From Vermamoeba vermiformis (lineage: Eukaryota), in NCBI GenBank assembly GCA_045837725.1, contig JBEWZL010000257.1:62001-126000 (forward strand): 64,000 nt of DNA, read 5' to 3'. Under the pieces are notes generated by a model. That model was not told the origin of the DNA. It did not search any database and saw nothing but the letters and a program-made list of their open reading frames with translations. Positions 21,445-61,700 of the stretch are shown one piece after another. The position numbers and the translations under genes are program-made. The stretch's first letter is position 1. The number at the start of each line of letters is the position of its first letter.

Positions 21445-24348
21445 ATGAGACGAGGCGGTGGAGGAGGATTTAAAGTGACGAAGACAGTCACCACTTCGAA
21501 GCCAACAGGTCGTGTTACAACTACGACCACAAAAACGGTGACGACATCCTCGCCTGGAATCTTTTCAAGCCCAAGCGTAGTTGTTAAATCTCCAACTATA
21601 AGCCCTACAGTTAAATTGTCTTCATCGGGCGTCAAAGTAAAAGTTAAAACACCCGTTGGAAAAGTCAAAGTGAAGAAGACTTATGTTGTCAGAAGGTAAA
21701 TATTCATTTATGATTATTGTTGATATTTATGTATTTTAAAAATATTATTCTCGATACTAATTTTAAATAGAGTTACAGTTGCTCCGCCAAGACGCAGATT
21801 TTGCTTGGCGAGGGCTTTGGTATTTACCACCGCTGCTGTGGCTCTGACAACGGTTTCTTTGGCCGAAATGGATCGTGTTGTAATTATTAAAGGAAAAAAG
21901 GGCAATTTCCGATGTGCCAGAGATACGGTAATATTTTGTGGATCAACCGTCCTGATCGAGATCTGACACTTTAACCGAAGGATGCTCCCACCTGTGCCGT
22001 TCATAACATTAGAGAATTGGGGCATTTGGTCGAAATAAGAGTCACGGATTCTATGGGACAAACTGGTTCATTTTACAGCGACAGCGTAAGATCCTAAAAT
22101 GTTACTTTTATCAAAACTAACACGTTCATTTAGTACTGCGTTACGTGCGGCCAATATTTCATGCTCCGCAGAGAAGAAATCAATGTGCCGATCGAATATC
22201 AGATCCAACAACAAACGACGGTTGTGCAAGGCATGCCTCCTGACGCAATGATGGGTGGTTCTCCTATGGGCCCTCAAGCTGTTCAACAAGTCGTCACCGT
22301 TCAACAGCCACCATTGCCGACAATTAGGCCTGCTTGGATTAAGGACCGTGATGCTCCAAAGTACGCTACTCGCAACACCTTATCAACATCCTTTTGTAGT
22401 CACTAATAATTTTATAGTTGCATGAGATGCCGATCAGAGTTCACAGTCACATTGCGAAGACATCACTGCAGAAATTGCGGCAAAATCTTTTGCACGGACG
22501 TAAGTCGATTTTACGTGTCACAGGTAATGTTGCTAATCCTTCGCGCAGTGCTGTTTCAAGAAGATAAAGTTGAAACATTTGGGCTATGACAGCAAAGAGC
22601 TGACGTGTGTTGAGTGCCTTAGTTTCTTAGAGCAATACTGGCACAACCAACGAAACCCGCAAAAAGTCGTTGTTAACACGCCTGCCAACACGAATGTCAG
22701 CGTGCTGCCCAACCCCATGCAACAGCCTATGAGCCCACAGCCGCAGTATGGCGCGTATCCTCAACAATCCGGCGCTAATCAAGTGCCGTACTATCCGCCG
22801 AACAATGGAAGCGTGCTGCCGAACCCCTCAAATCAACAACCCATCAGTGCGCCACAACCTCAATACGATCAATACAATAACAACAATCAAATGATGCAAC
22901 AACAACAGCCATACCCACCGCAACAACAGCCCTATGATCCGTCCGGTCAACAGAAGGTCTATTACCCTTCACAATACAGTGCTCACGCGCCAATCAATCA
23001 ACAGCAAGCACCGCAACCCCAGCCTACTGCTCAATTCACTCAAATTTACAACAGCGACCAGTCCGCTTATGACCCGTCACGACCTCAGCAGTTCAGTGCG
23101 CACGCTCCTCCTCCAAACAACCAGACTTACACGCCCACTATTGTTCCGACACACAGCACTCCTTCTGGTCCCAAGAAGAACCTAGATGAGTTGTTTTCAT
23201 CAGTCAAAACGAACTTATCAAACGCGACGAATATGCACTCGCACTACAGACACACTGAAGCCGCTGAGGCACTTGAGAAGGCGCGCACTGATTTGAACAT
23301 GATGGACACTGCTCCGTTCAATCTCGTTGACAATGTCAGGTCCTTCATCAATGACATGCGTTACCAAATTGACGCCTTGGAGAAGAAGATTGCCGAGTCG
23401 ATGACGACACGTGTCGTGGAGGACAAGGTCCGTGAGGCCAAGACTCACGGCACCACCGCCAAAGACATGCACTATCACAACAGATACCAAGAGTCCCTCG
23501 AAGCTGTCGCCAAGGCCCGTGAAGCGATTGCACAACTCTCGAACCCGCCTTACAGTACTCATCCCTCCGTGTACAGCTTCCTTCCTGACTTCATCAATCA
23601 AATCAACGAGATTGAAGCCAAGTGTGGGGAGTCCTTGCAATCTCGCAAGATTGACGAGAAGATCCGTGAAGCCAGGAGTCTTGGTACGAAGGCCAAGGAC
23701 ATGCACTACCACAATAGATACGATGAGTCACTCGATGCTGTTGCCAAGGCCCGCGAGTGCATCGTCAACCTTCAATCAACTTACGGTGCCTTCAAGAGTG
23801 TCGTAGATTTCTTGCCTGACTTTGTGCGACAGATCAACGAAATTGAAGCTATGTGCGGTGAATCCTTGCAAGGCCGTAAGATTGACGAAAAGATCCGCGA
23901 GGCCAAGAGTCTTGGCACCAAGGCCAAGGACATGCACTTCCACTACAGATTCAACGAGTCACTTGAAGCTGTTGCCAAGGCCCGTGAATGCATTGTCAAC
24001 CTCCAATCAACCTATGGTACCTTCAGGAGCGTCATTGAGTTCTTGCCGGACTTTATCCGACAAATTGACGACATCGAAAGACAGTGCGGTGAATCCTTGA
24101 TGAACAGAACTGTGGACGAGAAGATCCGCGAGGCCAAGTCCCACGGTACTACTGCCAAGGACATGATCTATCACAACAGATACCAAGAAGCCCTCACCGC
24201 TGTTGCGAAGGCACGTGAAAGCATTCTGCAGCTCTCTGACATGCCGTTCATTAACTTCCCTGCCGTCACTTCTTTCTTGCCCGAGTTCATCACCCAGATC
24301 AACGGCTACGAACAAACTTGTGACGCTGCTTTGGGTCCCAAGTATTAA
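21445..24348 (+). CDS. FYVE-domain protein with N-terminal CxxH/CxxC domain, QP-rich linker and five ~77-aa helical repeats
   Basis: FYVE motif [26 protein letters not shown] across exons 22333-22620; repeats lie in the last exon. Confidence 0.85.
23176..24345 (+). repeat. Coding tandem repeat, 5 units of 231-234 nt
   Basis: Units start at ~23182 (diverged), 23416, 23650, 23881 and 24112, with consensus [35 protein letters not shown]...FLPDFIxQINEIE. Confidence 0.9.
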
Positions 24349-24483
24349 ATCATGTAGTTATAAATCAGTTTTTATTACTGCTCTAGCCGATTGAAATTTG
24401 TTCTCAAAAAGATCTTTTTCGTGTGCAGGCCAAGCAAACGAACATTAGCGCAGCTATGTGAGGCTAACGAAGTTCTAGGACCT

Positions 24484-24825
24484 AAAAAAATGAAATCCTC
24501 GGCGAACTAATTAACACCAAAATCAGTCCGCAGTGCACGGAGTGTTTGTCTTGGGGCAGGGAAAACGCCAGTGCAGTGCCACGCCGCGCAACCACAGTAC
24601 GTAGGACAACCCTGCTAGAAGCACGAGTCCTCACAACAGAGCTATCAGTATGGGAGCGAGCATACCGACGCACGAGCTGCGCGACGAGAGTTGTCAAATC
24701 CAGGATCCTGAACAGGACAACGAACTGCACCAAAGACAAATAGATTCGTTAAGGAGCGAAACCGCACACGGATTTCGAGTATGCTTATACATACCAGCCA
24801 GGCTAACTGGAAGCAGGGCTACTTC
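24484..24825 (-). ncRNA. Candidate structured non-coding RNA of unknown family, ending in a T7 tract
   Basis: GC-rich island in AT-rich intergenic DNA with about ten nested stems. Their non-Watson-Crick positions are G-U pairs on the minus strand. Terminal stem GAAAUCC/GGAUUUC is followed by AUUUUUUU. Confidence 0.6.
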
Positions 24826-25176
24826 TTCAATCTGCGTAATAATAAATTTAGAAATTAATTATATTAACATACGTTAAAATTACATATGTTTGCTAAGATA
24901 CAAACAAATACGTAAACAGAATATAATAATTATTAAATTACAAAAATGTTTAATTCGTGGAAATTATCTATCACGCTTTCACTTACTGGTACCAGTATTA
25001 TCGCTTAAAGGAAGCAAAAATATAATTAAATATTATCTACTTCCGTCATTTTGAGCGTTGTGGTGTTTGTTGGGCGAAAAACCGTGGATGAAAAAAAGTC
25101 GACTTTTCCTGGCCAGTGAATCTTTGTGTTGCAACGTAGCAACACATTTTATGGTTAATTAAACAAAGAGTCCAGA

Positions 25177-27525
25177 ATGGCGGAGCAAGCACGAGTCGTA
25201 GGAAAACTACTTTCTTTGCGTGAGTACTGCCCAGTTAACAAAGTATATTCATTTTAATTGCGTCCATTAGATGCAAAATATTTTATTTAATTTTTAAAAT
25301 TACTAAGGAAGTGTCTCTAATCGATGTTATTTCATTCAGCTGTTGATCAGAAAGAAATTAAAGTTCAAGACCTTACCGCAGTGCTGAACAAATCAGAGGA
25401 GAAATTTCAACCGTGGGACGTATTTGAGTTATTTAGAGCATTTTATCCGTCGAAAATAGACGAGATTTCCGATACATCCGGTAATCCGACGGTTGCTGAT
25501 GCTGCCAACTCCCTTAAAGATCAAATTACAAAATACCAATATCTTTGGAGCAGTGTTTCTCAAGCGGCGGATGTAAATAGAGAAATAAATCATCAGTAAG
25601 TAGATCATGGTCTTTTTATTTCTGATCTAAAATTCTTTCTCCAGAGAGGTATCTCGAATATACCTCGAGGCGTCTAAAGAAGAAAGGTTGAAATACAAGC
25701 TATTTTATACGCGATTGTGGGAGCAAGCTGAAGAGTTAAGCCGCTCATTCAAATCCGTTCTTACCGAAATGGATCAAATCGACAACAATAGTAAAGCATC
25801 TCCGGTGATATCTACGGTAGGATTATATGCATATAACTATTTCATATTAATTTATTATATATGATAGATTTGTGAGTTACCAAAGGAGATCTGGTTTCAA
25901 ATTCTGGATCGGTTCACCAACGAATCTTTGCAACTGTGCGAGCCATTCATCAAAGCCACGTGCCATCCATTGAACGTAATTATGCGAGAATACAGGACTT
26001 CAAGATCAGGCTATCATAGTCTCGCTGTCGGATCTATCCTTTCGAACTCAGCTGCAAATGGCCATTTAAGTTGCGTCCAATTTTTGCACAGTGTTGGCAG
26101 AAAACTCAAACAAGACACGATATCAAAGGCTGCATTGTCGGGAAATTTCGAGTTGGTGAAATTCATTCATGAAACTGGAGTTAATGTCGATTGGCCGACA
26201 GTTCTGAATGCAGCGAAGAGCGGAAATTTCCAAGTATTTTCTTACGCTTATGAACACGTGGCAAAAGGTGCGGGACGTATCACCGATGTGGAACTGTCAC
26301 TCGGATGTCTTGAAGGCGGAGATCTCGACACGATCAAGGCTATGATTGACAAGCGGATTATGAGATTTGATGCGGCCGATCGATTTACAATCCTATTCAA
26401 GCACAAGCACGCGAAAGATATCATGCAATTGCTCATCGAACATGCTCCGACCATCGAGCACTGGAAGAGTAACACTGCATGGACCTTGTCTGCTTGCACC
26501 AACGGAAATTTCGCCTGTCTGAAGTACCTCATGGAACAAGGCTTTCAAGTGCACGAAGATTGTGCGTGTCAGCCTCATTCGCTCGAGTGCGTCAAGTACT
26601 TGTACGAGCGTAGTTTCTGGAACATGAAACTCATCGAGAATGCTGCTGTGATGGGCGCGCTTGATGTATTAGAGTTTGGCTACGAGGCAAGTACTGCTTT
26701 ATACTATACCTAGAATATTCAGCGATCACTTGATCGAAGAAACAAACTCAAGATCCGGATCCACAAAATTGACGAGATCCGGTTTTTTTTTTGTTCAACG
26801 TTTCAAATGCAACTCTATTAACGCTTATCATGGTATATTATGTACTTATAGTTTAATTAGGTCTGCCAGTATCCATTGACCAAGGCTGCAGCAAATGTGG
26901 CAATTCTTCGCCAACGCGATTCGTGTTTGGAATACCTATTGAACAACGACTGTCCAATTGACGAACAGTACATTTGGAAAGCAGCAGCAGTCTATGGCAC
27001 GGAAAAAAGTGTCAAACTGTTGTTCGCGAAAAAAGTTCCGTTCAACGCCGCAGTTTATTTTGAAGAGGCTTTAGCGTACTATCACAAGGACAAAAACAAG
27101 TCAATAGTCCTATGGGTGGCTCAACAAGGTGTTCCATTGCCCAACAATATCTGTGACTTGGCTGCCAGTGCAGGAAATCTCGATTTATTAGCGTACGCGT
27201 ACTCCTGTCGCAAACCGTTTAGCGCAGAAACAGCTAGAAAGGCAGTTGAAAGTCGTTCAGTGAAATGCTTGGAATTCGTGTTAGACCGTGGAGGTATGTC
27301 ACACTTTCCTTTTTTGGGTTATAACATTTTTTTTTCTTTGTAGCTGTAATGACCGAAGAGGCCCTGAGTGGGGCTGCTGCTTTTAATTGCGTGCCGTGCC
27401 TTGCAGTGCTATTAGAACGAGGTTGTCCTATTCCAAATGACATCGACATGATACTCGGACTCTCGGGATCAATAGAGGCTGGCAATTACTACCAAGATTT
27501 TCTAGCCAATAGGGCTAAAAAATAG
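25177..27525 (+). CDS. F-box plus degenerate ankyrin-repeat protein
   Basis: F-box-like ELPKEIWFQILDRF at ~25874; repeats SAANGHLSCVQFLH, AALSGNFELVKFIH, AAKSGNFQVFSYAY and AASAGNLDLLAYAY; GC-AG intron 26687-26860. Confidence 0.75.
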
Positions 27526-27565: not shown

Positions 27566-30500
27566 TTATTGCATTTGTGACATAACGCTTTCGAGTTGTG
27601 CAATGATGTGTTCGAAAGTAGGTCGTTGTGATGGTTCCATGTGCCAACAGCTCTTAATTACCAATGCGAGTTCACTTGGACACGTGTCAGGAAGGTGAGG
27701 TGTCAGTCCTGAGTCACGAATCTCTTGACCGACTTGAATGGGATCTTTGTCAACATGAGGCTCTTGTTGTGCGATGATCTCAAAGGCGACAATGCCAAAC
27801 GACCAAACATCGGATTTGGTGGAGTACTCTTTGCGCTTGAGTGACTCAGGAGACATCCATCGAATGGGTCCAAGTTCTGATTTGGTTGTGCCTCGTTGTT
27901 GTTCATCATCCACAATGCGTGACATGCCAAAGTCTGTCAGTTTCGCTTCGTTCTGATGCAACAACACATTTCTCGCAGCAACGTCACGATGAACAATGTT
28001 GTTTGAATGAAGATGTGACAGTCCTTTGCTGATGCCAATCAACCATTCGAGCTTTTGTTTCAGCGGAATTGATGTTTTGTCATTGAACAAGAGCTCGTCC
28101 AACGCACCTTGATTGCAGTACTCGAGCACCAACACGATGCTGTCTGTCTCTGGATGCACACTGAAGCCAAGAAGTTGCACCACATTGGGATGAGGTCGAA
28201 GTTGCATCATCAATGAGAGTTCACTGATCACACTGTTGTTCGCTTGAGTCATGCTCAGTTTGAGTGCCACTGATGTGTTCTTCCAGCTGCCTTTGAACAC
28301 TTGACCGCTGCCTCCTTGTCCGAGCTGCTCGTGGAATGTGAGGTCAGAGAACGGAATGAGCCATTGTCCGTATTGATTTTCGAGACCAATCACTGATGCT
28401 CTGTTGCCTCTGTTCTTTTTCTTCTTTTGCCTTCTGATCAAGAAGAACGCCACTAACGCACCTGCAATGAGAACAGCGCCAACTGGTACCACGATAGCGA
28501 CAATCAGTGTTGCATTGTCCTGACTCAACCCTTCTGGTGTAGCACTCTGATTGGTACCGGGCGTCAACTGACCAACTGTTTCTAATGAACTGAGATCAAT
28601 CAGTCTGACTGAGTTCGAGTAGAAGCCGTAGCTTTTGTCCTGGCCACCAGCAATCAGAATTAACTCTTTGTCGCCCACAGTGACAGGTGTCATGACTGAC
28701 GGGTGAATGTAGCCCGTGATTCCAGGCACAGAGTTCCATGTCTGTTGATCCACCAAGCCGTAATAATCGAAGCCATCACTATCGCCATAACTGATCAATA
28801 AGAGTGATCCGCTCGTTGCCATTGAAGCGCCGGAAGAAGTGGCTCGAGAGAATAACAACAGACCTTGTTGTTGATCGTCAATGTTCCACGTGTAAATTGA
28901 CTTTTTCGTCGTTGAGATTAAGATCCGATTGGCTTGTTTGTTGTGAATAATTTGCAGGGGAATTGTTTTGTCTGCAATCATGCTGAAATCTGTAACTCCG
29001 TGGTTGACAATGCGCAGTCGTAATACATCGGTGGTCGTGTACGCAATGCCTTCAACAGTCACAACCATGGGGCTAATGGACGCGCCTGGCAGAGTGTAGT
29101 TGTAAGGATCGAGCAGCTGTTCGTCCCATTGATCCGTGGCCACATCGAATGTTAGGCGATGTGTGCTCGTGAAGACTGTGAGTTTGTCGTCCATATTGAA
29201 TGCTTGGTTGTAAAACGCAGGTTCGCTGGGATAAGGAAACGTCGTTGAATTGAGCCACTGGCCAGTCTGGTAGTTGTAAATGTCCAGTTGATCCGATACG
29301 TTGGTTTGTAACACTCCGCCGCTGGTCACAAAGAAGTTATTGCCTTGAGCGAACCACACTGAATCGCTGTTAAACGTATTGCCCGTGTTGGTGAAGAGGT
29401 TGCTGTATGTCGGTGTGAGGGTTGAGAACGCTTTTCCATTGCTGAAGTCGAACAAAATGTTGTTGAAGCACAGTTGCGGGATGAAAGGCATTATAGTCGT
29501 TGCCATCAAGGCTAGTGTTGAGTTGTACTTGTATAGGTTATATGTGTCGGGCACTTTCACAGTTGCATAAAGCTGATCGGGTACCGGATGCGACAAAACG
29601 AGGCCTTGAATTAGAGTCCGTGGTGTGTATTTCACATTGCAATTGTTGAATAGGTAGATGCCATCGAATGTCGCAAAAACATAGCCATTGGATGGCCACT
29701 CGAGAGCTGCTACAGTGCGCCCAACTAGCGTAACATTGCCACTCGGAGTCCAAGCTCCATTGTCAAAACAATACATTGTAGCGTATAGAGGGTAGTTGAC
29801 AAAGTAGGCGAGGTGATCTTGATAGGCAACTGAAGCAACGATAGGTCGTTCGGTACTGGAGAATACTGGATCTGCTCGAGGATTGCTCCAGTCAACGGTG
29901 TAGTATCCAGATGAAGTGAAGATGAATGTGAAGCCAGGCACACTTAGGGCATTGGTAGCGTTCATAATCGTTATATTGAGCCACGTCGAGGTATTGATGT
30001 TGAATAAGACGTAGTCACCAACATTGTTAGTGGCCGTCATGATATTGTTCGTAACGGCAACTGAATACTGGCCTCTAGGAATGTAGCCTATTGGATTGAT
30101 CGCGTTCTCATAGTGAGTCAGGTTCGATGAGTCGATGTCGAAGAGCCAAGCATCAGTGAGTGGTTGACGAGATGACACGTTGACACCTCCAAACATGAAA
30201 ATCAAGTTCTCGTGGTTGAATACAACTGTGCCTGCAATATGCATCATAAGGTTATCGAGATCGGAGTTTGTAATCCATCCGTCTCCCGTCTTCGTTAGTT
30301 GCAAAAATTTGGCTTGGTTTGATCCGAGCAAGACCAATGTAGAGCCGTGTAGAGAGATTTGAATGGGTCGGTATATACCTAACTCAGGCATCTTTTGCAA
30401 GCTGTCCGAGCCAGCATCATACTGATAAGCCGCTGTTGTAAAAGTCATTTCCCAACCGCCCAAAAAGTAGATGTGCGGGGAAACTACGGCAGGAGTTACA

Positions 30501-30748
30501 TAAAATCGCGGTGAAGGCAGAGATAGTGTACTGTTCCACGTTTGTGTAGCGATATCGAAGACATCGATTGTGGATGACGGTTGATTTGTGGTCGTCAATC
30601 CACCTGCCAAGTAGATCTTGCCGTCTACTTCGACGGAAGTGAATGCTGTTCGCGGAGATGATAATAAGAACTCTTTTTGCAGCAGGTCCTGTGAAAGAAC
30701 GTTCCAGGACAAAGCGAGAATCAAGATGAAACTAATTAACTGCATCAT
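27566..30748 (-). CDS. Receptor-type tyrosine-kinase-like kinase with Kelch ectodomain (intronless, 1060 aa)
   Basis: Signal peptide; Kelch motifs KIYLAGG, IFMFGG and ILIAGG; TM LIVAIVVPVGAVLIAGALVAFFLI; kinase motifs GQGGSG, VALK, HRDVAARN, DFG and GPIRWMSPE. Confidence 0.92.
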   Translation of the reverse strand: MMQLISFILILALSWNVLSQDLLQKEFLLSSPRTAFTSVEVDGKIYLAGGLTTTNQPSSTIDVFDIATQTWNSTLSLPSPRFYVTPAVVSPHIYFLGGWEMTFTTAAYQYDAGSDSLQKMPELGIYRPIQISLHGSTLVLLGSNQAKFLQLTKTGDGWITNSDLDNLMMHIAGTVVFNHENLIFMFGGVNVSSRQPLTDAWLFDIDSSNLTHYENAINPIGYIPRGQYSVAVTNNIMTATNNVGDYVLFNINTSTWLNITIMNATNALSVPGFTFIFTSSGYYTVDWSNPRADPVFSSTERPIVASVAYQDHLAYFVNYPLYATMYCFDNGAWTPSGNVTLVGRTVAALEWPSNGYVFATFDGIYLFNNCNVKYTPRTLIQGLVLSHPVPDQLYATVKVPDTYNLYKYNSTLALMATTIMPFIPQLCFNNILFDFSNGKAFSTLTPTYSNLFTNTGNTFNSDSVWFAQGNNFFVTSGGVLQTNVSDQLDIYNYQTGQWLNSTTFPYPSEPAFYNQAFNMDDKLTVFTSTHRLTFDVATDQWDEQLLDPYNYTLPGASISPMVVTVEGIAYTTTDVLRLRIVNHGVTDFSMIADKTIPLQIIHNKQANRILISTTKKSIYTWNIDDQQQGLLLFSRATSSGASMATSGSLLLISYGDSDGFDYYGLVDQQTWNSVPGITGYIHPSVMTPVTVGDKELILIAGGQDKSYGFYSNSVRLIDLSSLETVGQLTPGTNQSATPEGLSQDNATLIVAIVVPVGAVLIAGALVAFFLIRRQKKKKNRGNRASVIGLENQYGQWLIPFSDLTFHEQLGQGGSGQVFKGSWKNTSVALKLSMTQANNSVISELSLMMQLRPHPNVVQLLGFSVHPETDSIVLVLEYCNQGALDELLFNDKTSIPLKQKLEWLIGISKGLSHLHSNNIVHRDVAARNVLLHQNEAKLTDFGMSRIVDDEQQRGTTKSELGPIRWMSPESLKRKEYSTKSDVWSFGIVAFEIIAQQEPHVDKDPIQVGQEIRDSGLTPHLPDTCPSELALVIKSCWHMEPSQRPTFEHIIAQLESVMSQMQ

Positions 30749-31187: not shown

Positions 31188-34100
31188 TCATATCCGCTTT
31201 GCTACGTCTTCAAGTTGTGAAGTGATTTGTTCAAAGCTGGGTCGTTGTGATGGTTCCATGTGCCAACAGCTCATGATCACCGATGCCAAGTCATTCGGAC
31301 ACGTGTCAGGAAGGTGAGGGGTCAGTCCTGAGTCACGAATCTCTTGACCGACTTGAATGGGATCTTTGTCAATGTGAGGCTCTTGTTGTGCAACGATCTC
31401 AAAGGCGACAATGCCAAACGACCAAATGTCTGTGAAATGATAGCAACGTTAGCATCAGCTGAGTAAATGAAAGCTGGAATTATCTACCTGACTTAGTAGA
31501 GTACTCTTTGCGCTTGAGTGACTCAGGAGACATCCATCGAATGGGTCCAAGTTCTGATTTGGTTGTGCCTCGTTGTTGTTCATCATCCACAATGCGTGAC
31601 ATGCCAAAGTCTGTCAGTTTCGCTTCATTCTGATGCAACAACACGTTTCTCGCAGCAACGTCACGATGAACAATGTTGTTTGAGTGAAGATGTGACAGTC
31701 CTTTGCTGATGCCAATCAACCATTCGAGCTTTTGGTTCAACGGAATGTCGCTCTTCTTGTCAAACAAGAGCTCATCCAACGCACCTTGATTGCAGTACTC
31801 GAGCACCAACACGATGCTGTCTGTCTCTGGATGCATACTGAAACCAAGAAGTTGCACCACATTGGGATGAGGTCGAAGTTGCATCATCAGCGAGAGTTCA
31901 CTGATCACACTGTTGTTCGCTTGAGTCATGCTCAGTTTGAGTGCCACTGATGTGTTCTTCCAACTGCCTTTGAATACTTGACCACTTCCTCCTCGTCCGA
32001 GTTGCTCGTGGAATGTGAGATCAGAGAACGGAATGAACCATTGTCCATATTGACTTGAGAGACCGATGGTTGACATGGAAGTGCTGCGGCTCTTCCTCTT
32101 CTTGTGTCTTCTGATCAAGAAGAACGCCACTAACGCACCTGCAATGACAGCGGCGCCAACTGGTACCACGATAGCGACGATCAGCGTTGTTTCGTAGGAG
32201 TTGTCTTGTCGGCCAGGCGTGACAGAACTTGCGCTCGGAATAGTTTCGTTGGCTACAACAGGGGCTGCTGGTGGGCTTAAATCAAGGATTTTGACCGAGT
32301 CTGTGAAAAATTGAAACTCTTTGTCCATGCCACCGGCGATGACTACAAAGTCTCGACCTTTGGCATTAAGTCCTCTCATTACCGCTGGACGGACGTAGTT
32401 TGCAACACCAGGGACCGAGTACCATTGCGATGTCAAAAGATTGCAGTAGTCGATTGCATTGAGGTTGTTGTAGGCACTAGCCACAAAGAAAGCACCGCTA
32501 GAGCCTGTCAAAACCTCTGTGCCGTCAAATCGTGGGAGCAAAAATATCTCTTTCTGTCGAGTGTCGATATTCCAAGTGTAGATTAAATTTCTTGACGTTG
32601 TTATGAAGAGCTGATTGGACCATTCATTGTAGATCATTTGAAAAGGAATTTCTTGGTCAGTGATCAAGTCGAACGTTATGGCACCGTGGCTAACAATTCT
32701 GAGTCGTAGAGCATTCACCATTGTGTACACAGTGTCGTTGATTTCCAGCGCCATGGGACTGATGTTTGCGAAAGGCAAAGCGATGCTCTCGTTCAAAGCC
32801 TCTTCGAGCCACGAGTTGATAGTGACGTTGAACTTCAACAACTTATCGTTGGCAAAAATCGCAAGCACGCCATCCATATTAAACGCCTGAGCGTAACCGT
32901 TTGTTTGACTGAGCGCAGGATGCGATGTTGAATTGAGCCACATGTTAGTCTTGTAGTTGTAAATATCCACTTGCTCTGAGATACCGATAGTGGCTGAGCC
33001 CACGCTAAGGGCAACAAAGAACTGCCCGCTCCAGGCCCATTTAGTCCGAGCGTCAAATGGAGCAGTGTCGGTGAAGATTGAACTTGGAGTCGAAAGCGTT
33101 GTGAGAGAGAACGCCTTCCTGAAGAGAAATTGAAATACGATGTTGTCAAAGCAAGCTTCAGGGACAAGAGGCACGTCCATTGATCCGAGGTAAGCCAGCG
33201 TTGAGTCATATTTGTGCAAACTCGAATTGCTGCCTGTACTTGGCACTGCAACGTAGAGCTGATCCGGTACTGGATGCGATACAACAACACTTCGGATTTG
33301 CTGCCGAGCTGTGAATATCAGGCTGCAGTTGTTGAATAGATAGACGCCATCAGAGGTCGCAAATACTGTGCCATAGGAAGGCCATTCAAGCGTTGTGATT
33401 ATGGTTGAAATGCTGGGTGCACCGCTGCTACTCGTGGTCCAAACTCCAGCACTAAAACAATGCATCACAACTGTCGCCTGGTCGTTGACAAAATAAGCAG
33501 CTGTATCAGTGAATCCCAGCGAATAAACAACTGGTCCCGTAGAACTGAAGAATGTGGGATCTGCTCGAGGGTTGTTCCAGTCAACGGTGTAGTATCCAGA
33601 TGAAGTGAAGATGAATGTGAAGCCAGGCACACTGATGACGTTGGTAGCATTTGCAGTCACATTGATCCACGTAGAGGTGTTGATATTGAACATATTTGTA
33701 AGGACACCTCTATTTGTCCATGCAGCCAAAATATTGTTTGAGACAGAGCAACTGTATTCATCGCTTCGTACGTAACCTGTTGGAGTGATTGCATTCGCAA
33801 AGCGAGTTAGGTTCGATGAGTCAATGTCGAAGAGCCAAGCATCAGTGAGTGGTTGACGTGATGACACGTTGACACCTCCAAACATGAAAATCAAGTTCTC
33901 GTGGCTGAATACAATCGATCCTGCTGCTCGCTCCATGGTGCCATCAAGCTCATCGACAGACCACCATCCACTTCCGGCATCCGTTAGATTTACAAAAGCG
34001 GCATTTTGAGATCCGAGAACGACTAATGTTACTCCATAAATAGACATTTGAAGAGGTTGTTGAATGGGCACCACGGGCAGAGCTTGCAAAGAGACGGACT

Positions 34101-34431
34101 GGGAGTCGTAGAGATACGGCACGGTAGCAAAAGTGACGTTCCATCCGCTCACAAAATAAATGTGCGGAGAAACCACCGCAGGGGAAACGAAGGCGCGGGG
34201 TGAGGGCATAGTTAACGTGTCGTTCCATGTTTGGGTGGCTATATCAAAGACATCGATCGTGGATGACACTCGATTCCCATTTCTAAATCCACCTGCCAAG
34301 TAGATCTTGCTATCCACTTCGATAGAGGTGAACGCTGAACGAGGAGATGACAATAATAACTCTTCTTTTAAGCCTTGCGGAACAACGTCCCAGGGTAGGA
34401 GCAGGATCAAAATGCAACACGCGATCCACAT
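31188..34431 (-). CDS. Tandem paralog: Kelch-ectodomain receptor TKL kinase with one intron (31430-31487)
   Basis: Same architecture as 27566-30748. TCAG|gtagat...cacag|AC restores STKSDIWSFG; stop TGA at 31188-31190. Confidence 0.9.
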
Positions 34432-34771
34432 CCTGCACAAAAAATCTTTTGTTATTTTAGCATATAAAAAAATGCATAAAAATAAGATTAATTACCACAA
34501 ATTGTGCTTTTATTAATCACCGAATGGATCAATTGAGATATCGGGACTCGTTGAATCACTGCCTACAATATCCGTTAGCGCAAGTAATACATCGGCACAT
34601 CTGGCTTACTAAACATCAGTTTGGGTTCTTTTGACATTTGAATGAAGCGTAAATGTTGTTCAGTTCACATCGCACCAGAGAAGAAATTTCGTTACCCCGA
34701 TCTGGCTCAAGCCTATGCGTAACTAGATATCAATTAGTTATTATATTAGGACAGTATAATGCACGTCTTAC

Positions 34772-50003: not shown

Positions 50004-52197
50004 ATGCAACGTGTCTTAGTTTCTCTTTGCTTCGCGTTGGCGATCTTGAGCGTAATCGACGCCCGCATGTATCGTCCCAAGCTCACCAAGGGTTTTGCGG
50101 ATTCGGATGTGACTCGTATTGCTCCAGGTCCTGCCTCTGCTATTTCATATGACAACTCTACTTACCGTGTTACTTCTCTTCCTGGCCTCAAGCCAAACAC
50201 CGGCCTGTCTCACTTTGCTGGTACCCTCCCCGTCAGCTCTGGCGCTCTCTTCTTCTGGCTTTTTGAAGCCGAAACTGCCCCTGAGACTGCTCCCCTCGCG
50301 ATCTGGATGAACGGAGGTCCAGGATGCAGTTCTTTGGAAGGCAAGTATTACAAAATTATTTAATTATTTTGTCGGTACGATCATGGTTTAATTAAGGAAA
50401 GATGAAAATCTCGTTGAGATTGCAAAATATAACATTAAATTTATCAAGATATTTATTTTACCGTTAATATTCGAGATCTATCGAGAAATTGGTTCCTGGC
50501 TTTTGTTTTGCCGATCGAGTATTAAATAATTCATAAATAGGTCTTTTCTACGAGCTTGGTCCTTTGGTTTTGGCTAAAACTATGACTAATCAATGGGACG
50601 TCTCGATCAACCCTTACTCTTGGCACAAGTAAGTCTTGAGCTCCGCAGTTGTTACTATTATTATTTGCCAATTGAAATCCATGCGGAACTAACGATTTCT
50701 AATAAGGCGCGCCAACATGTTGTTCGTCGATCAGCCCGTCGGTACTGGTCTTTCGTACACCAACGGCTCTTATGCCAATAGCACTCAACAAGTAAGTATA
50801 GTCCATATTGTATTTTTTTGAAGCCAATCTACAAATACTAACCGGGATCCTTTGTTTAGGTCGCTGCCGAGTTCTACCAATTCTTGCAAACGTTTTACGA
50901 GATCTTCCCTAGCTACAAGACTCGTGATTTGTACATTTTTGGTGAATCTTACGCCGGAATCTACATTCCTACCATCTCGACTTACATTTTGGATCAAAAC
51001 GAAAACTTGAACAAGAACAACCCTGACAAGCAAACTATCATCAAGTTGACTGGTATTGGTATTGGTAAGTACCGTAGTTCTCTAAATACTCCATAACGAT
51101 AATATTCTTGAAAAACGATGTCGATCTAACTCTTTTCTCGTTCGTAGGTAACGGCTGGATTGACGTTATTACTCAAAGCGTTATCTACCCCGAATTGGGT
51201 CGCTTCACTGGTATTTTGAACTCCAACCAACAATACGCCTTGGACCAAACTGCTGCTAAGTGCTACCAAGACATGCTCAAGGGCAACTTCGCATCTGCTG
51301 CTTGCCAAGATAATCTTTTGGGCGACCTCTCAGATGCGTAAGTGCCGCATAATATTTAACCGAAATACGACGTGCGGAATTGTTTTGCTGACCATCCCAT
51401 TTGGTTTAGATCTGGCAACAACGTTACCGGTCAAGTTAACGTCTACGACATGCGCTTCTTCGATCCTACTGGTGGAGCAATCTGGCCCTACGCCGTGGTC
51501 TATATGGCTGAGTACTTGGCTGATCCTCAAGTCTTGCTTGCAGTCCACGTTGACAACAGATCCGTCTGGAGCGTAAGTCTTAAGCAAACTTTCTGGGTGA
51601 TAAACATGCTTACAATTGATATTGTAGGACTGCAACGGTCCTGTCTACAACGCTTTGGCTGGCCAAGAAGGCGCTGGTACCTTGAAGTTGTTGCCTCGTT
51701 TGATCGAGACCATGCCCGTCTTGCTCTACAGCGGTCAATTCGACATTATCTGCAATCACTTGGGCACAGAACAGTTCTTGACTACCATCGACTGGCCTCA
51801 CAGAGACGAGTTCTTGAACGCCAACAGATCCATCTGGGTCGTTAACTCAACCAGCCCTGCTCCTTTCATTGGTGGTTACGTTCAAAAGTTCAACAACTTG
51901 ACCTACTTGTTGGTGCTCAATGCCTCTCACATGGTGCCATTCAGCGTGCCTGAGGCCTCTTTGGACATGTTCACTCGCTTCATCCGCAGCAAGGACTACT
52001 CAGATCTTCCTCAATTCTACGCTCCCTTCCAATCTGGTGTTGGTCCCTTCGGTCCTAACAGCAACAACAACTCGCCTTTGCCAGTCTACGGCTGGGTTTT
52101 GATCATCATTGGCGCTTTTGTTGTCGGATGTGGTTTGTCCGCTATTGTCATCGTGTCTGCCTTCAAGAAACGAGACAACTACGATAGATTGAACTAA
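50004..52197 (+). CDS. Serine carboxypeptidase S10, Kex1-like type I membrane protein
   Basis: WMNGGPGCSS, DQPVGTG, GESYAG (nucleophile Ser), DIIC, NASHMVP; C-terminal TM and YDRL tail; GC-AG intron 50341-50540. Confidence 0.92.
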
Positions 52198-53900: not shown

Positions 53901-54019
53901 AGAGCACAACACCTCCGATTCCCAGGTAGTCTCCTACCCCAGTACTAAGAAGGCCTGAACAAGCTTAACTTCGCTGATCGGACGGGAAGCGGTGCATTCT
54001 TGTTAGTGTGGTCGTGCCC
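53901..54019 (-). rRNA. 5S: 5S rRNA
   Basis: GGGCACGACCAC...CCCGTCCGATCAGCGAAGTTAAGC...TTAGTACTGGG...CCTGGGAA...GTTGTGCTCT, 119 nt, with terminal stem and a following T7 terminator. Confidence 0.95.
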
Positions 54020-59388: not shown

Positions 59389-60612
59389 ATGCATCTTCTG
59401 TCCCTGCCAAAAGAACTATATTTCGAAATTCTAGATTATATCGTAGATCCCCTAGATATACATAGGTAACATATTTGTTTTCGTTAAGCTTGAAATTATT
59501 TTTTGGTGTTAAAATCAGCCAACATAATGGCAAATATTTTTTTTTTTAGTCGGATTAAATATTTATTTGCTAGGAAGTGATGATTAGCATTTCTTGAATT
59601 TCTTTGCTGAGTATGTAACAAATAGTTACTGTCGTTTCTTTGCAACCAATTAATTACTAAAAGTTAAAATCCTAAGTTTATTTTTTGCAGGTTATGCTTG
59701 GTGTGCTCTAAACTGTGTACCACACTTCATCGAGCAAGCAGTCTTTGTCTTAATGGGCAGCTTTACAAATCGAGCAAAATCGATCTATCTAAATTCACTC
59801 AATTACGCCAGTTGAGTCTTGTGGATTTCACCTCCCAAACATTTCATGGATTAACTACTCTAACTCAATTGCATGAGTTAGCTTTGAGAGGTGGTTTTCC
59901 TGAAATTATAGATTATTGCCATTTTCCCATGCTTAACAGGCTGTACATTGAATATGGGAATGGCGTGGATAATGATGACCTATCAGTGCTATTCCATCAA
60001 CTATCAACTATCACATTCCTAACAATAGGGATTAACTACGAAAGAGCACTACTGTCGCTGCTTACAATATTACAACGATTGGAGACATTACAAATATTTA
60101 GAGGCTACATCGACCCAGAACAATTTCAATACTTGGGTCATTTACCCTTGTTGACAAGCTTGGAATTCCGTTATTTTGATTTCACATTCAAGCACTTTGA
60201 GAGTCTGCCAACTCTGACAGCGTTGCAAATTTTCCATCTTGGAAGTTTTGATTCAGGAAATATTAGTGGCAGCGAGGACGGCTTAAAGTGTATTGCAGAT
60301 TCATTTACAAATTTGAAAGCACTATCGTACTATCCTGCACCTGTTCTTCCAGACAATATTACACAATTAAAAAGACTTGAATATCTAGCTTTTTTGGAGT
60401 TTGGCCCAACAAATGGTTTCACCCTACTAAGTACTTTACCCAACTTGACATACCTAACAACTCCCTTAGAACATGAACACTGGGAACAATTGACTGCACT
60501 AACACAATTAAAAATCCTTCGATGTTTTAATGCAGATGAAAATACAATGATATTCCCACATTTAAAAATTATTGACTCATGTGATGGACAGTTCCCAGTT
60601 GGAATGCTTTAA
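59389..60612 (+). CDS. F-box plus leucine-rich-repeat protein
   Basis: MHLLSLPKELYFEILDYI (F-box); intron ~59466-59690; LxxLxxLxL repeats (LTTLTQLHELAL, LPLLTSLEF, LTALTQLKILRC). Confidence 0.8.
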
Positions 60613-60944: not shown

Positions 60945-61700
60945 TTTACTATGCACAGTGAAGGAGTACTGTGGCAATGGTACCGGGGTTTGCATGGAAC
61001 AATACCCTGAAAACTGCTTCGTCGACTGCCGCCCTCATATTACCAAAACTTGATCAACTACTGCTCCAATGCAAGGCCATATCGCTCCGGGTAATACTTA
61101 ATTATATACGGTGCGTACCAGCGGTGTTCAATTTCTTATTCAGGATTCCACGTCGGGACGGACACTATTGGAGATTACTTCCCTTGATGAAGAAATATGG
61201 CACTCACTTCTACTACACGGCTACGCTCGGAGGTCGATTGCGACAAGTGATTGTACTGGACAGTACTTACGAAAACACTCAAAGCGAATTCGAGATCAGC
61301 CGATCTGCTGATATTAGTTTTGCAGCTTCTATAGCAGGATCTCTTTTATCTGCAGATGGTTCCTTAAGTATGGATTTAGCTGGATCTTTGGATAGCTCTA
61401 CAACAGCAGAACAACAAAGCCAATTTGAAACATCTTCTTCTCGCAGCACAGTCATCACTTATGGAGGTCCTCCTGGTTCATTTGGTCCAACAACCTCGGA
61501 TGCACCTTCAAACTTTGGTGATTGGGCAAGTGCTGTTGACTTGCTTCCTGTTCCCATCGATTATCAGCTCGTTCCAATCTATGACACAATACACCCATTG
61601 TAGAAAACGAGAAATGGAGAATCTATTCGAGAAATGTGGAGGAATTCTCAAGAGAGTTACAGAAATAGCACTGGTGCATTTACGGGAGGTATTTCATTTG
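60945..61700 (+). pseudogene. MACPF (perforin-like) gene fragment
   Basis: KYGTHFYYTATLGG signature and ..GG...FGDWASAVDLLPVPIDYQLVPI. An upstream Cys motif CGNGTGVC..NCFVDC lies in another frame. No start, signal peptide or N-terminal MACPF half is visible. Confidence 0.7.

Follow-up and report, generated by a model that had tools for sequence, protein, structure and literature searches.

The minus strand of positions 24484 to 24831 of the window (the whole 64,000-nt stretch of DNA that was analysed) very probably carries a structured RNA gene that is maintained by selection. Taken together, the evidence makes it probable that the stretch is a structured non-coding RNA gene of ~348 nt that is transcribed by RNA polymerase III (Pol III), represents a new lineage-restricted family and provides the scaffold of a ribonucleoprotein (RNP). 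On balance, we also favor the view that the family is small and confined to its lineage, that no other member of it has been described before, and that the RNA is not SRP RNA, RNase P or MRP RNA, an snRNA, 7SK or telomerase RNA.

The predicted fold of this RNA is both unusually stable and specific to one strand. The minimum of RNAfold energy (MFE) was compared to that of 100 dinucleotide shuffles per strand for the 342 nt of 24484–24825. On the minus strand, the MFE is −130.8 kcal/mol and the shuffles average −103.5 kcal/mol (sd 5.1), which corresponds to a z-score of −5.35 that was reached by 0 of the 100 shuffles. On the plus strand of the same stretch, the z-score is −1.92, and 2 of 100 shuffles folded equally well. 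The folding energy is thus not at the level of shuffled sequence, a level that would have refuted a functional RNA gene according to the first-pass annotation of this DNA. As a background, both strands of 26 segments of 342 nt from elsewhere in the window were folded, and the resulting 52 strand-segments have a mean z-score of −0.12 (sd 1.22, minimum −2.41). In a sliding scan of 200-nt segments across 23600–25999, the signal of the candidate is located at 24500–24799 on the minus strand only (z-scores of −3.6 and −3.5). G-U pairs account for 21 of the 120 MFE pairs on the minus strand, and the partition function gives a mean pair probability of at least 0.9 in most helices. The stretch has a non-coding look, as its longest stop-to-stop frame is 90 aa and it contains no credible ORF. 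A further local fold signal is found in a 200-nt segment at 25000–25199 on the minus strand (z-score of −3.2), upstream of the promoter region of the candidate; within it, a perfect 8-bp palindromic hairpin (25125–25146) is followed by TTTTAT.

All nine helices listed in the first-pass annotation are fully complementary on the minus strand through Watson–Crick or G-U pairs (24770–76/24492–98, 24762–69/24533–40, 24733–40/24545–52, 24724–31/24570–77, 24676–85/24583–92, 24690–95/24716–21, 24645–52/24661–68, 24603–07/24627–31 and 24502–12/24521–31). Its claim that mismatches resolve as G-U on the minus strand was likewise confirmed: the nine helices contain 8 G-U pairs, which become A·C on the plus strand. 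For the hairpin 24603–07/24627–31, complementarity stands, but the MFE structure puts a longer hairpin (24646–24605) in its place, and a natural G>A substitution at 24607 abolishes the pair of the shorter hairpin and keeps the MFE pair. Where three small 5′ hairpins had been described, the fold has two (24820–24796 and 24795–24778). GCAGGG (24615–10), which had been offered as one side of a possible pseudoknot, is indeed complementary to CCCUGC (24561–56), but it is already paired in the MFE structure with a probability of at least 0.96.

We place the proposed gene at 24484–24831 (minus strand, ~348 nt), so that the RNA would begin at ~24831 and end somewhere in the T run (24484–24490). The likely 5′ end is ~24831 rather than 24825, because the match to a contig from a related organism (run X4, see below) stops at 24831. 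In the direction of the RNA, a purine-rich 5′ leader (24828–24821) can lie against the U tail. It precedes two 5′ hairpins that abut without a linker and are both predicted with P of 0.93–0.94: the bipartite hairpin 1 (24820–24796, loop UCCAGUU) and the 7-bp hairpin 2 (24795–24778, loop AUAA). In the closing stem, the 5′ strand GAAAUCC (24770–24776) forms 7 Watson–Crick pairs (P of 1.00) with the 3′ strand GGAUUUC (24492–24498), and AU7 comes directly after the latter. The central long arm (24582–24769, P of 0.79–1.00) contains the 5′ strands of three stacked helices (24769–62, 24740–33 and 24731–24), which in full are 24769–62/24540–33, 24740–33/24552–45 and 24731–24/24577–70, and both strands of the helices 24686–75/24593–82 and 24673–68/24602–24597. 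On this arm, the predicted fold also has a small hairpin (24760–45), a side hairpin (24721–24690, loop GAUC) and two apical hairpins (24666–24647 and 24646–24605), with CUCGCUCC and UCGU as their loops. An asymmetric loop of 17 nt, GGCGUUUUCCCUGCCCC (24569–24553), faces a single U, and together with the 3′ strands of two helices it makes up a 41-nt block (24538–24578). The 11-bp 3′ hairpin (24502–24531, loop UUGGUGUU, P of 0.99) has within it a T4 run and the Sm-like string GAUUUUGG (24524–24517).

Pol III transcription of 24484–24831 is plausible, given a T7 run like that of the 5S rRNA gene, a TATA-like box and the pairing of the 5′ and 3′ termini. The T7 run at 24484–24490 (minus strand), a candidate Pol III terminator that would give rise to the U tail, was found where it had been reported, immediately past the closing stem. 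The TATA-like box, ATATAATT, can be read at 24857–24864 (minus strand), 26–33 nt upstream of ~24831, and may serve as the promoter. Two internal T4 runs, at 24565–62 and 24522–19, could end Pol III transcription early. A tRNA-type internal promoter was considered and rejected: neither an A box nor a B box is present in 24484–24831, the motif near the 5′ end that had been called A-box-like does not conform to the generally known A-box consensus, and the one B-box-like GUUCG reads GUGCG in a related organism (run X12). For comparison, the window has one gene whose transcription by Pol III is beyond doubt, a dispersed 5S rRNA gene (53901–54019, minus strand, Rfam score of 104.7 bits). It also ends in T7, with a T9 run ~70 nt further downstream, and there is a TATA-like stretch ~40–50 nt upstream of it.

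The candidate lies in the spacer between two plus-strand ORFs, one for a repeat protein that ends at 24348 and one for an ankyrin protein that starts at 25928. It occurs once in the 64 kb of the window, where none of the repeat families overlaps it. The repeat-protein ORF (22570–24348), which ends 136 nt from the T run, includes a 231-nt (77-aa) repeat in 3.5 tandem copies at 23417–24225. The window is eukaryotic, with sparse and interrupted ORFs and no tRNA genes in its 64 kb, and nearby gene products include Kelch-transmembrane-kinase, ankyrin-repeat, LRR, MACPF and S10 carboxypeptidase proteins. Two Kelch-repeat/transmembrane/tyrosine-kinase-like genes are arranged in tandem (27566–30748 and 31480–34440, both on the minus strand) and share DNA blocks of 70–93 per cent identity; the ORF at 31480–34440 breaks off partway through its kinase domain, probably because an intron lies there, and its JGI relatives are cut at the same place. 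The best named relative of a neighboring kinase is a Vermamoeba vermiformis transcript (54 per cent identity). An amoebozoan host of broadly this sort is therefore probable, but identity at this level is insufficient for assigning a species. The exons of an S10 serine carboxypeptidase (51372–52197, plus strand) are 97 per cent identical over 180 aa to a JGI protein of 545 aa (P0089), which points to a very close relative of the host in public environmental data. An ORF with a MAC/perforin domain (60971–61603, plus strand, Pfam E-value of 1.7e-17) adjoins an LRR ORF (59698–60612).

In a word index of public runs, parts of the stretch were found in 19 rows from 11 studies; 4 of the 19 rows are recorded as RNA, and all four come from one study. 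Runs X4, X5, X12 and X20 were aligned, with X6–X11 and X13–X19 (biofilm, water, soil and aquifer metagenomes included) lying outside the alignments. Contigs of three related organisms are 96–99.6 per cent identical to the candidate, and as contigs they give neither the strand nor the true ends of a transcript. X5 is an RNA-seq library from organism C; one of its contigs, 240 nt long and with a depth of 6.5, corresponds to 24538–24777 with 1 difference. Depth in this library is zero at 24386–24509 and 24789–25100, and the RNA core and the 3′ end of the neighboring gene (24200–24355) are covered, which is a pattern of transcripts and not of contaminating DNA. Contigs from X4 (organism B, designated as RNA by guess only) match 24555–24705 with 0 differences and 24686–24831 with 1 difference. 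X12 (organism D) contributes one contig, which matches 24542–24796 with 9 differences and a 2-nt deletion. X4, X5, X12 and X20 all leave 24484–24537 uncovered, the part of the candidate with the 3′ hairpin, the T7 run and the 3′ half of the closing stem.

Run X20 consists of raw RNA-seq reads under the species label of the window organism. In ~13 million records, or 46 per cent of the run, there are 0 reads over 24355–24881 and 69 reads on the entire 901-nt stretch, of which 65 are less than 90 per cent alike. The reads at the 3′ end of the repeat-protein ORF are mostly below 90 per cent as well, suggesting many paralogous repeats. The lack of reads on the candidate is real but weak evidence that the RNA is not highly abundant in X20, given that there are 69 reads only and that the library is presumably poly(A)-selected, as RNA-seq libraries of this kind usually are. 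The lack of a transcript, which according to the first-pass annotation would refute a functional RNA gene, agrees with the X20 raw reads and is contradicted by the RNA-library contigs of X5.

Sequence variation in the close relatives appears to spare the fold, which argues for selection on it. Among the 9 distinct substitutions observed in the relatives, 5 are located at unpaired positions and 4 in predicted pairs, all of which still pair: G-U becomes A-U at 24584 and 24607, C-G becomes U-G at 24597, and A-U becomes G-U through the A>G substitution at 24792 in X4, within the 5′ hairpin 24795–24778. We redistributed these substitutions, type by type, over randomly chosen positions of the covered region that have the required base (290 positions, 211 of them paired) and found zero broken pairs in 0.29 per cent of 100,000 Monte Carlo trials (P = 0.003), with 4 breaks as the commonest outcome; the structure used in this test was predicted from the window's own sequence, and a single contig with a depth of 2.1 is the source of 8 of the 9 substitutions. 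There are no compensatory double changes, because all relatives are at least 96 per cent identical. The RNA core is also better conserved in X5 than the coding 3′ end beside it, with 1 difference in 240 positions versus 8 in 249 (Fisher p = 0.038), a comparison in which the coding pieces may include paralogous repeats.

The X5 library also contains a 351-nt contig (depth of 17.5) that is diverged from the window outside of one block. In the alignment, it matches 24538–24569 only, with 0 differences and 1 inserted base; visual inspection of the loose-end consensus extends the match to 24578, which results in the 41-nt block. The shared block is situated 272 nt from one end of the contig and 46 nt from the other, and the equivalent distances in the window are 262 nt from 24831 and 47–54 nt from the T run. 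These matching distances suggest that the contig represents a diverged paralogue or homologue of the same architecture and length, and its geometry provides independent support, from one contig, for the proposed ends of the gene. The 41-nt block, which includes the 17-nt asymmetric loop, is identical in this second, diverged contig and would be the likeliest site for binding or catalysis in the predicted RNA.

More distant homologues were sought with the conserved block, and none was found: a metagenome scan with a 22-base pattern derived from it returned 0, as did a scan of viral contigs. Prokaryote genome contigs yielded a single hit, an exact 21-base match to the block on a bacterial MAG contig (locus L004, 1933–1953, minus strand), which is due to chance and lies inside coding-looking DNA of 62–67 per cent GC. 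Synteny in metagenome contigs, followed through P0072, a relative of the neighboring kinase, led to 3 loci of 27–35 per cent identity that encode unrelated kinases.

To place the RNA among known families, we used Rfam 15 (4227 families), with gathering thresholds for the window and E ≤ 10 for sub-regions. Over the whole window, the only match at gathering thresholds is the 5S rRNA, located elsewhere than the candidate. The sub-regions 24200–25100, 24478–24840, 24596–24690 and 24478–24600 produced no real match at E ≤ 10, and the last of them none at all. The sub-threshold matches are to ceN104 (16.8 bits, threshold of 65), to greA (16.6 bits, threshold of 60), which falls outside the candidate, and to sR39 (9.7 bits versus a threshold of 50), which is on the plus strand. 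A strong Rfam match, which would have removed the novelty proposed in the first-pass annotation, was thus found neither in the window beyond the 5S rRNA nor in the sub-regions. The accompanying statement that the hallmarks of SRP, RNase P/MRP, U1–U6, U3 and a CCCUAA telomerase template are missing is borne out by the Rfam searches and by motif tests.

SRP (7SL) RNA is similar to the candidate in its length of ~300–350 nt, in its Pol III-type signals and in its topology, in which a pair of 5′ hairpins is followed by a long central helix and then by two apical hairpins, one short and one long. The candidate has two further hairpins, one at the side and one at the 3′ end. SRP RNA is described as having UGUNR between Alu-domain helices 3 and 4, A at the third and fourth positions of the helix 6 and helix 8 loops, and symmetric and asymmetric loops in helix 8 (PMC4605306). 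The candidate differs on each count. Within its 348 nt, UGUNR between the 5′ hairpins and UGUAAU are absent, the loop adenosines are absent from the apical loops CUCGCUCC and UCGU, GNAR occurs in no hairpin loop, and the predicted fold has no symmetric loop of the helix 8 type. SRP RNA, which the topology had suggested, was therefore rejected on the motif tests and the Rfam sub-region scans.

RNase MRP and RNase P RNAs are of similar size to the candidate, which is probably transcribed by Pol III as they are and, like them, has its 5′ and 3′ regions joined by a terminal helix; unlike them, the candidate is devoid of GARAR, AnAGUnA, CR-I/CR-V, partners for a P4-type pseudoknot and an Rfam match. 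CR-I and CR-V sequences form the P4 pseudoknot of RNase P RNA, and their consensus patterns, as generally known, have 0 matches in the 348 nt. RNase MRP RNA has a GARAR loop in P8 and AnAGUnA of CR-IV before the 3′ strand of P2 (PMC1796607), and both patterns have 0 matches in the 348 nt.

The motifs by which snRNAs and snoRNAs are commonly recognized (the U1 5′ end, the U2 branch-site box, the U5 loop, ACAGAGA of U6, box A of U3 and box C, RUGAUGA) have 0 matches each in the candidate, and the U4 motif is also absent. CUGA and Sm-like strings occur twice each, as expected by chance. 7SK is a metazoan Pol III RNA of ~330 nt with two GAUC motifs in a 5′ hairpin and a conserved 3′ hairpin; its partners are HEXIM, LARP7 and MePCE, and to our knowledge it has been described in animals only. 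A stable 3′ hairpin just before a U tail is a layout that is bound by La-related proteins. The candidate is comparable to 7SK in length, in the upstream TATA-type promoter and T-run terminator that we propose, and in its 5′ and 3′ hairpins, but neither of its 5′ hairpins contains the pair of GAUC motifs, and it has no Rfam 7SK match. Its single GAUC is situated in a variable loop (24707–24704), where 2 of the 4 letters are changed in X12, and the earlier description of the RNA as 7SK-like finds no support.

The description as telomerase-like fared no better, since no canonical template was found among the 15 telomere repeat units that we tested, a set from which the host's own repeat may differ. 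There is no template within 1 mismatch for TTAGGG, TTAGG, TTTAGGG or TTGGGG in the candidate. Matches within 1 mismatch to TTAGGC, TCAGG and TTTCGGG are wholly or largely in paired stretches. In unpaired RNA, only TCAGG and TTGCA are matched, and the three TTGCA sites are all within the CACUGCAC repeat, with two of them partly paired. These few matches to rarer units are noise. The periodic string CCCUGCCCC (24561–24553) was also considered as a template and dropped, because 22 comparable periodic strings occur in the RNA by chance. The telomere repeat of Acanthamoeba is of the TTAGG type (PMC9528979). In the parts of a 2025 review that bear on the question, no amoebozoan telomerase RNA is named, and the telomerase RNAs of plants and ciliates are reported to have a type 3 (Pol III-type) promoter (PMC12133305). 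The candidate is like these plant and ciliate RNAs in being a small structured RNA with a closing helix and with TATA-like and T-run signals, as expected for a gene with a type 3 promoter; it also has a conserved C-rich segment that is single-stranded and lies between helices. It is unlike them in having no canonical template, no identifiable pseudoknot or stem-terminus element, and a diverged second copy.

Could the RNA nevertheless be a very diverged SRP (7SL), RNase MRP/P or telomerase RNA that is beyond recognition by Rfam in this lineage? We consider this unlikely. A length of ~350 nt, Pol III-type signals and terminal pairing all fit these classes, the arrangement of hairpins and long helix is SRP-like, and telomerase RNA of Amoebozoa has, as noted above, yet to be named in the review sections that report type 3 promoters in plants and ciliates (PMC12133305). 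Moreover, non-canonical SRP RNAs were missed by computational searches in the past (PMC4605306). However, no SRP, RNase P, MRP or telomerase model matches at E ≤ 10, even when sub-regions are included, the SRP, MRP and P motifs and the canonical telomerase template are absent, and a diverged second copy would be unusual for a P, MRP or telomerase RNA. It is less likely still that the RNA is an snRNA-like or snoRNA-like transcript of Pol II, with an incidental T7 run and a 3′ end processed near the Sm-like GAUUUUGG. The TATA-like box is compatible with either polymerase, no aligned contig reaches 3′ of 24538, and an Sm-like motif (R-A-U4-G-R) adjoins a hairpin; yet that motif is located within the 11-bp hairpin (P of 0.99), and the perfect 7-bp closing stem takes up 24492–98, immediately before the T7 run. 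The U1, U2, U4, U5, U3 and box C motifs and any Rfam match are lacking, and the 46 nt by which the 351-nt contig runs past the block agree with the distance to the T run, not to the Sm-like site.

We regard it as similarly improbable that the locus is non-working, either as a SINE-like, mobile or repeated element or as a decaying paralogue of the commoner second copy, from which its structure would have been inherited. An identical 41-nt block with diverged flanks is reminiscent of the core domains of SINEs, the second copy is deeper in the RNA library (17.5 vs 6.5), parts of the sequence recur across the 19 run rows and 11 studies, and X20 has 0 reads on the candidate. On the other hand, the 64 kb hold one copy and no repeat family that touches it, and A and B boxes, an A-rich tail and a simple-repeat tail are all missing. 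Decay is also at odds with the 0 of 9 substitutions in relatives that break a pair (P = 0.003) and with the lower divergence of the core than of coding sequence in X5 (1/240 vs 8/249 differences, Fisher p = 0.038, with the same reservation about paralogous repeats in the coding pieces).

Under the explanation that we prefer, a structured Pol III RNA, the polymerase would start ~30 nt downstream of the TATA-like box and stop in the T7 run. The transcript would then fold into the two 5′ hairpins, the multi-helix arm closed by GAAAUCC/GGAUUUC, the two apical hairpins and the 11-bp 3′ hairpin, and its purine-rich 5′ leader would lie against the U tail. La or a La-related protein may bind the UUU-3′ end of the RNA, which we infer to serve as an RNP scaffold. 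Tentatively, and with somewhat less than even confidence, we suggest that the RNA founds a class of Pol III RNP RNAs of tubulinid-type amoebae that has yet to be described, a small family with members of ~350 nt that would be widely divergent apart from an identical 41-nt core, built around the 17-nt asymmetric loop, as the functional site. The boldest sub-case of this suggestion, to which we assign only a small part of the total probability, is that the candidate is the telomerase RNA of Amoebozoa or performs the function of 7SK.

We know of almost no experimentally described non-coding RNAs from Amoebozoa outside Dictyostelium. In the literature covered, we came across no account of an amoebal RNA of this kind. 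The locus is compact and its predicted ends are clear, and it is therefore amenable to direct experiment. The candidate may be either a new RNP scaffold or a universal RNA (SRP, MRP or telomerase) in a state of extreme divergence, and the latter, if true, would alter the strategy by which such RNAs are searched for in protists.
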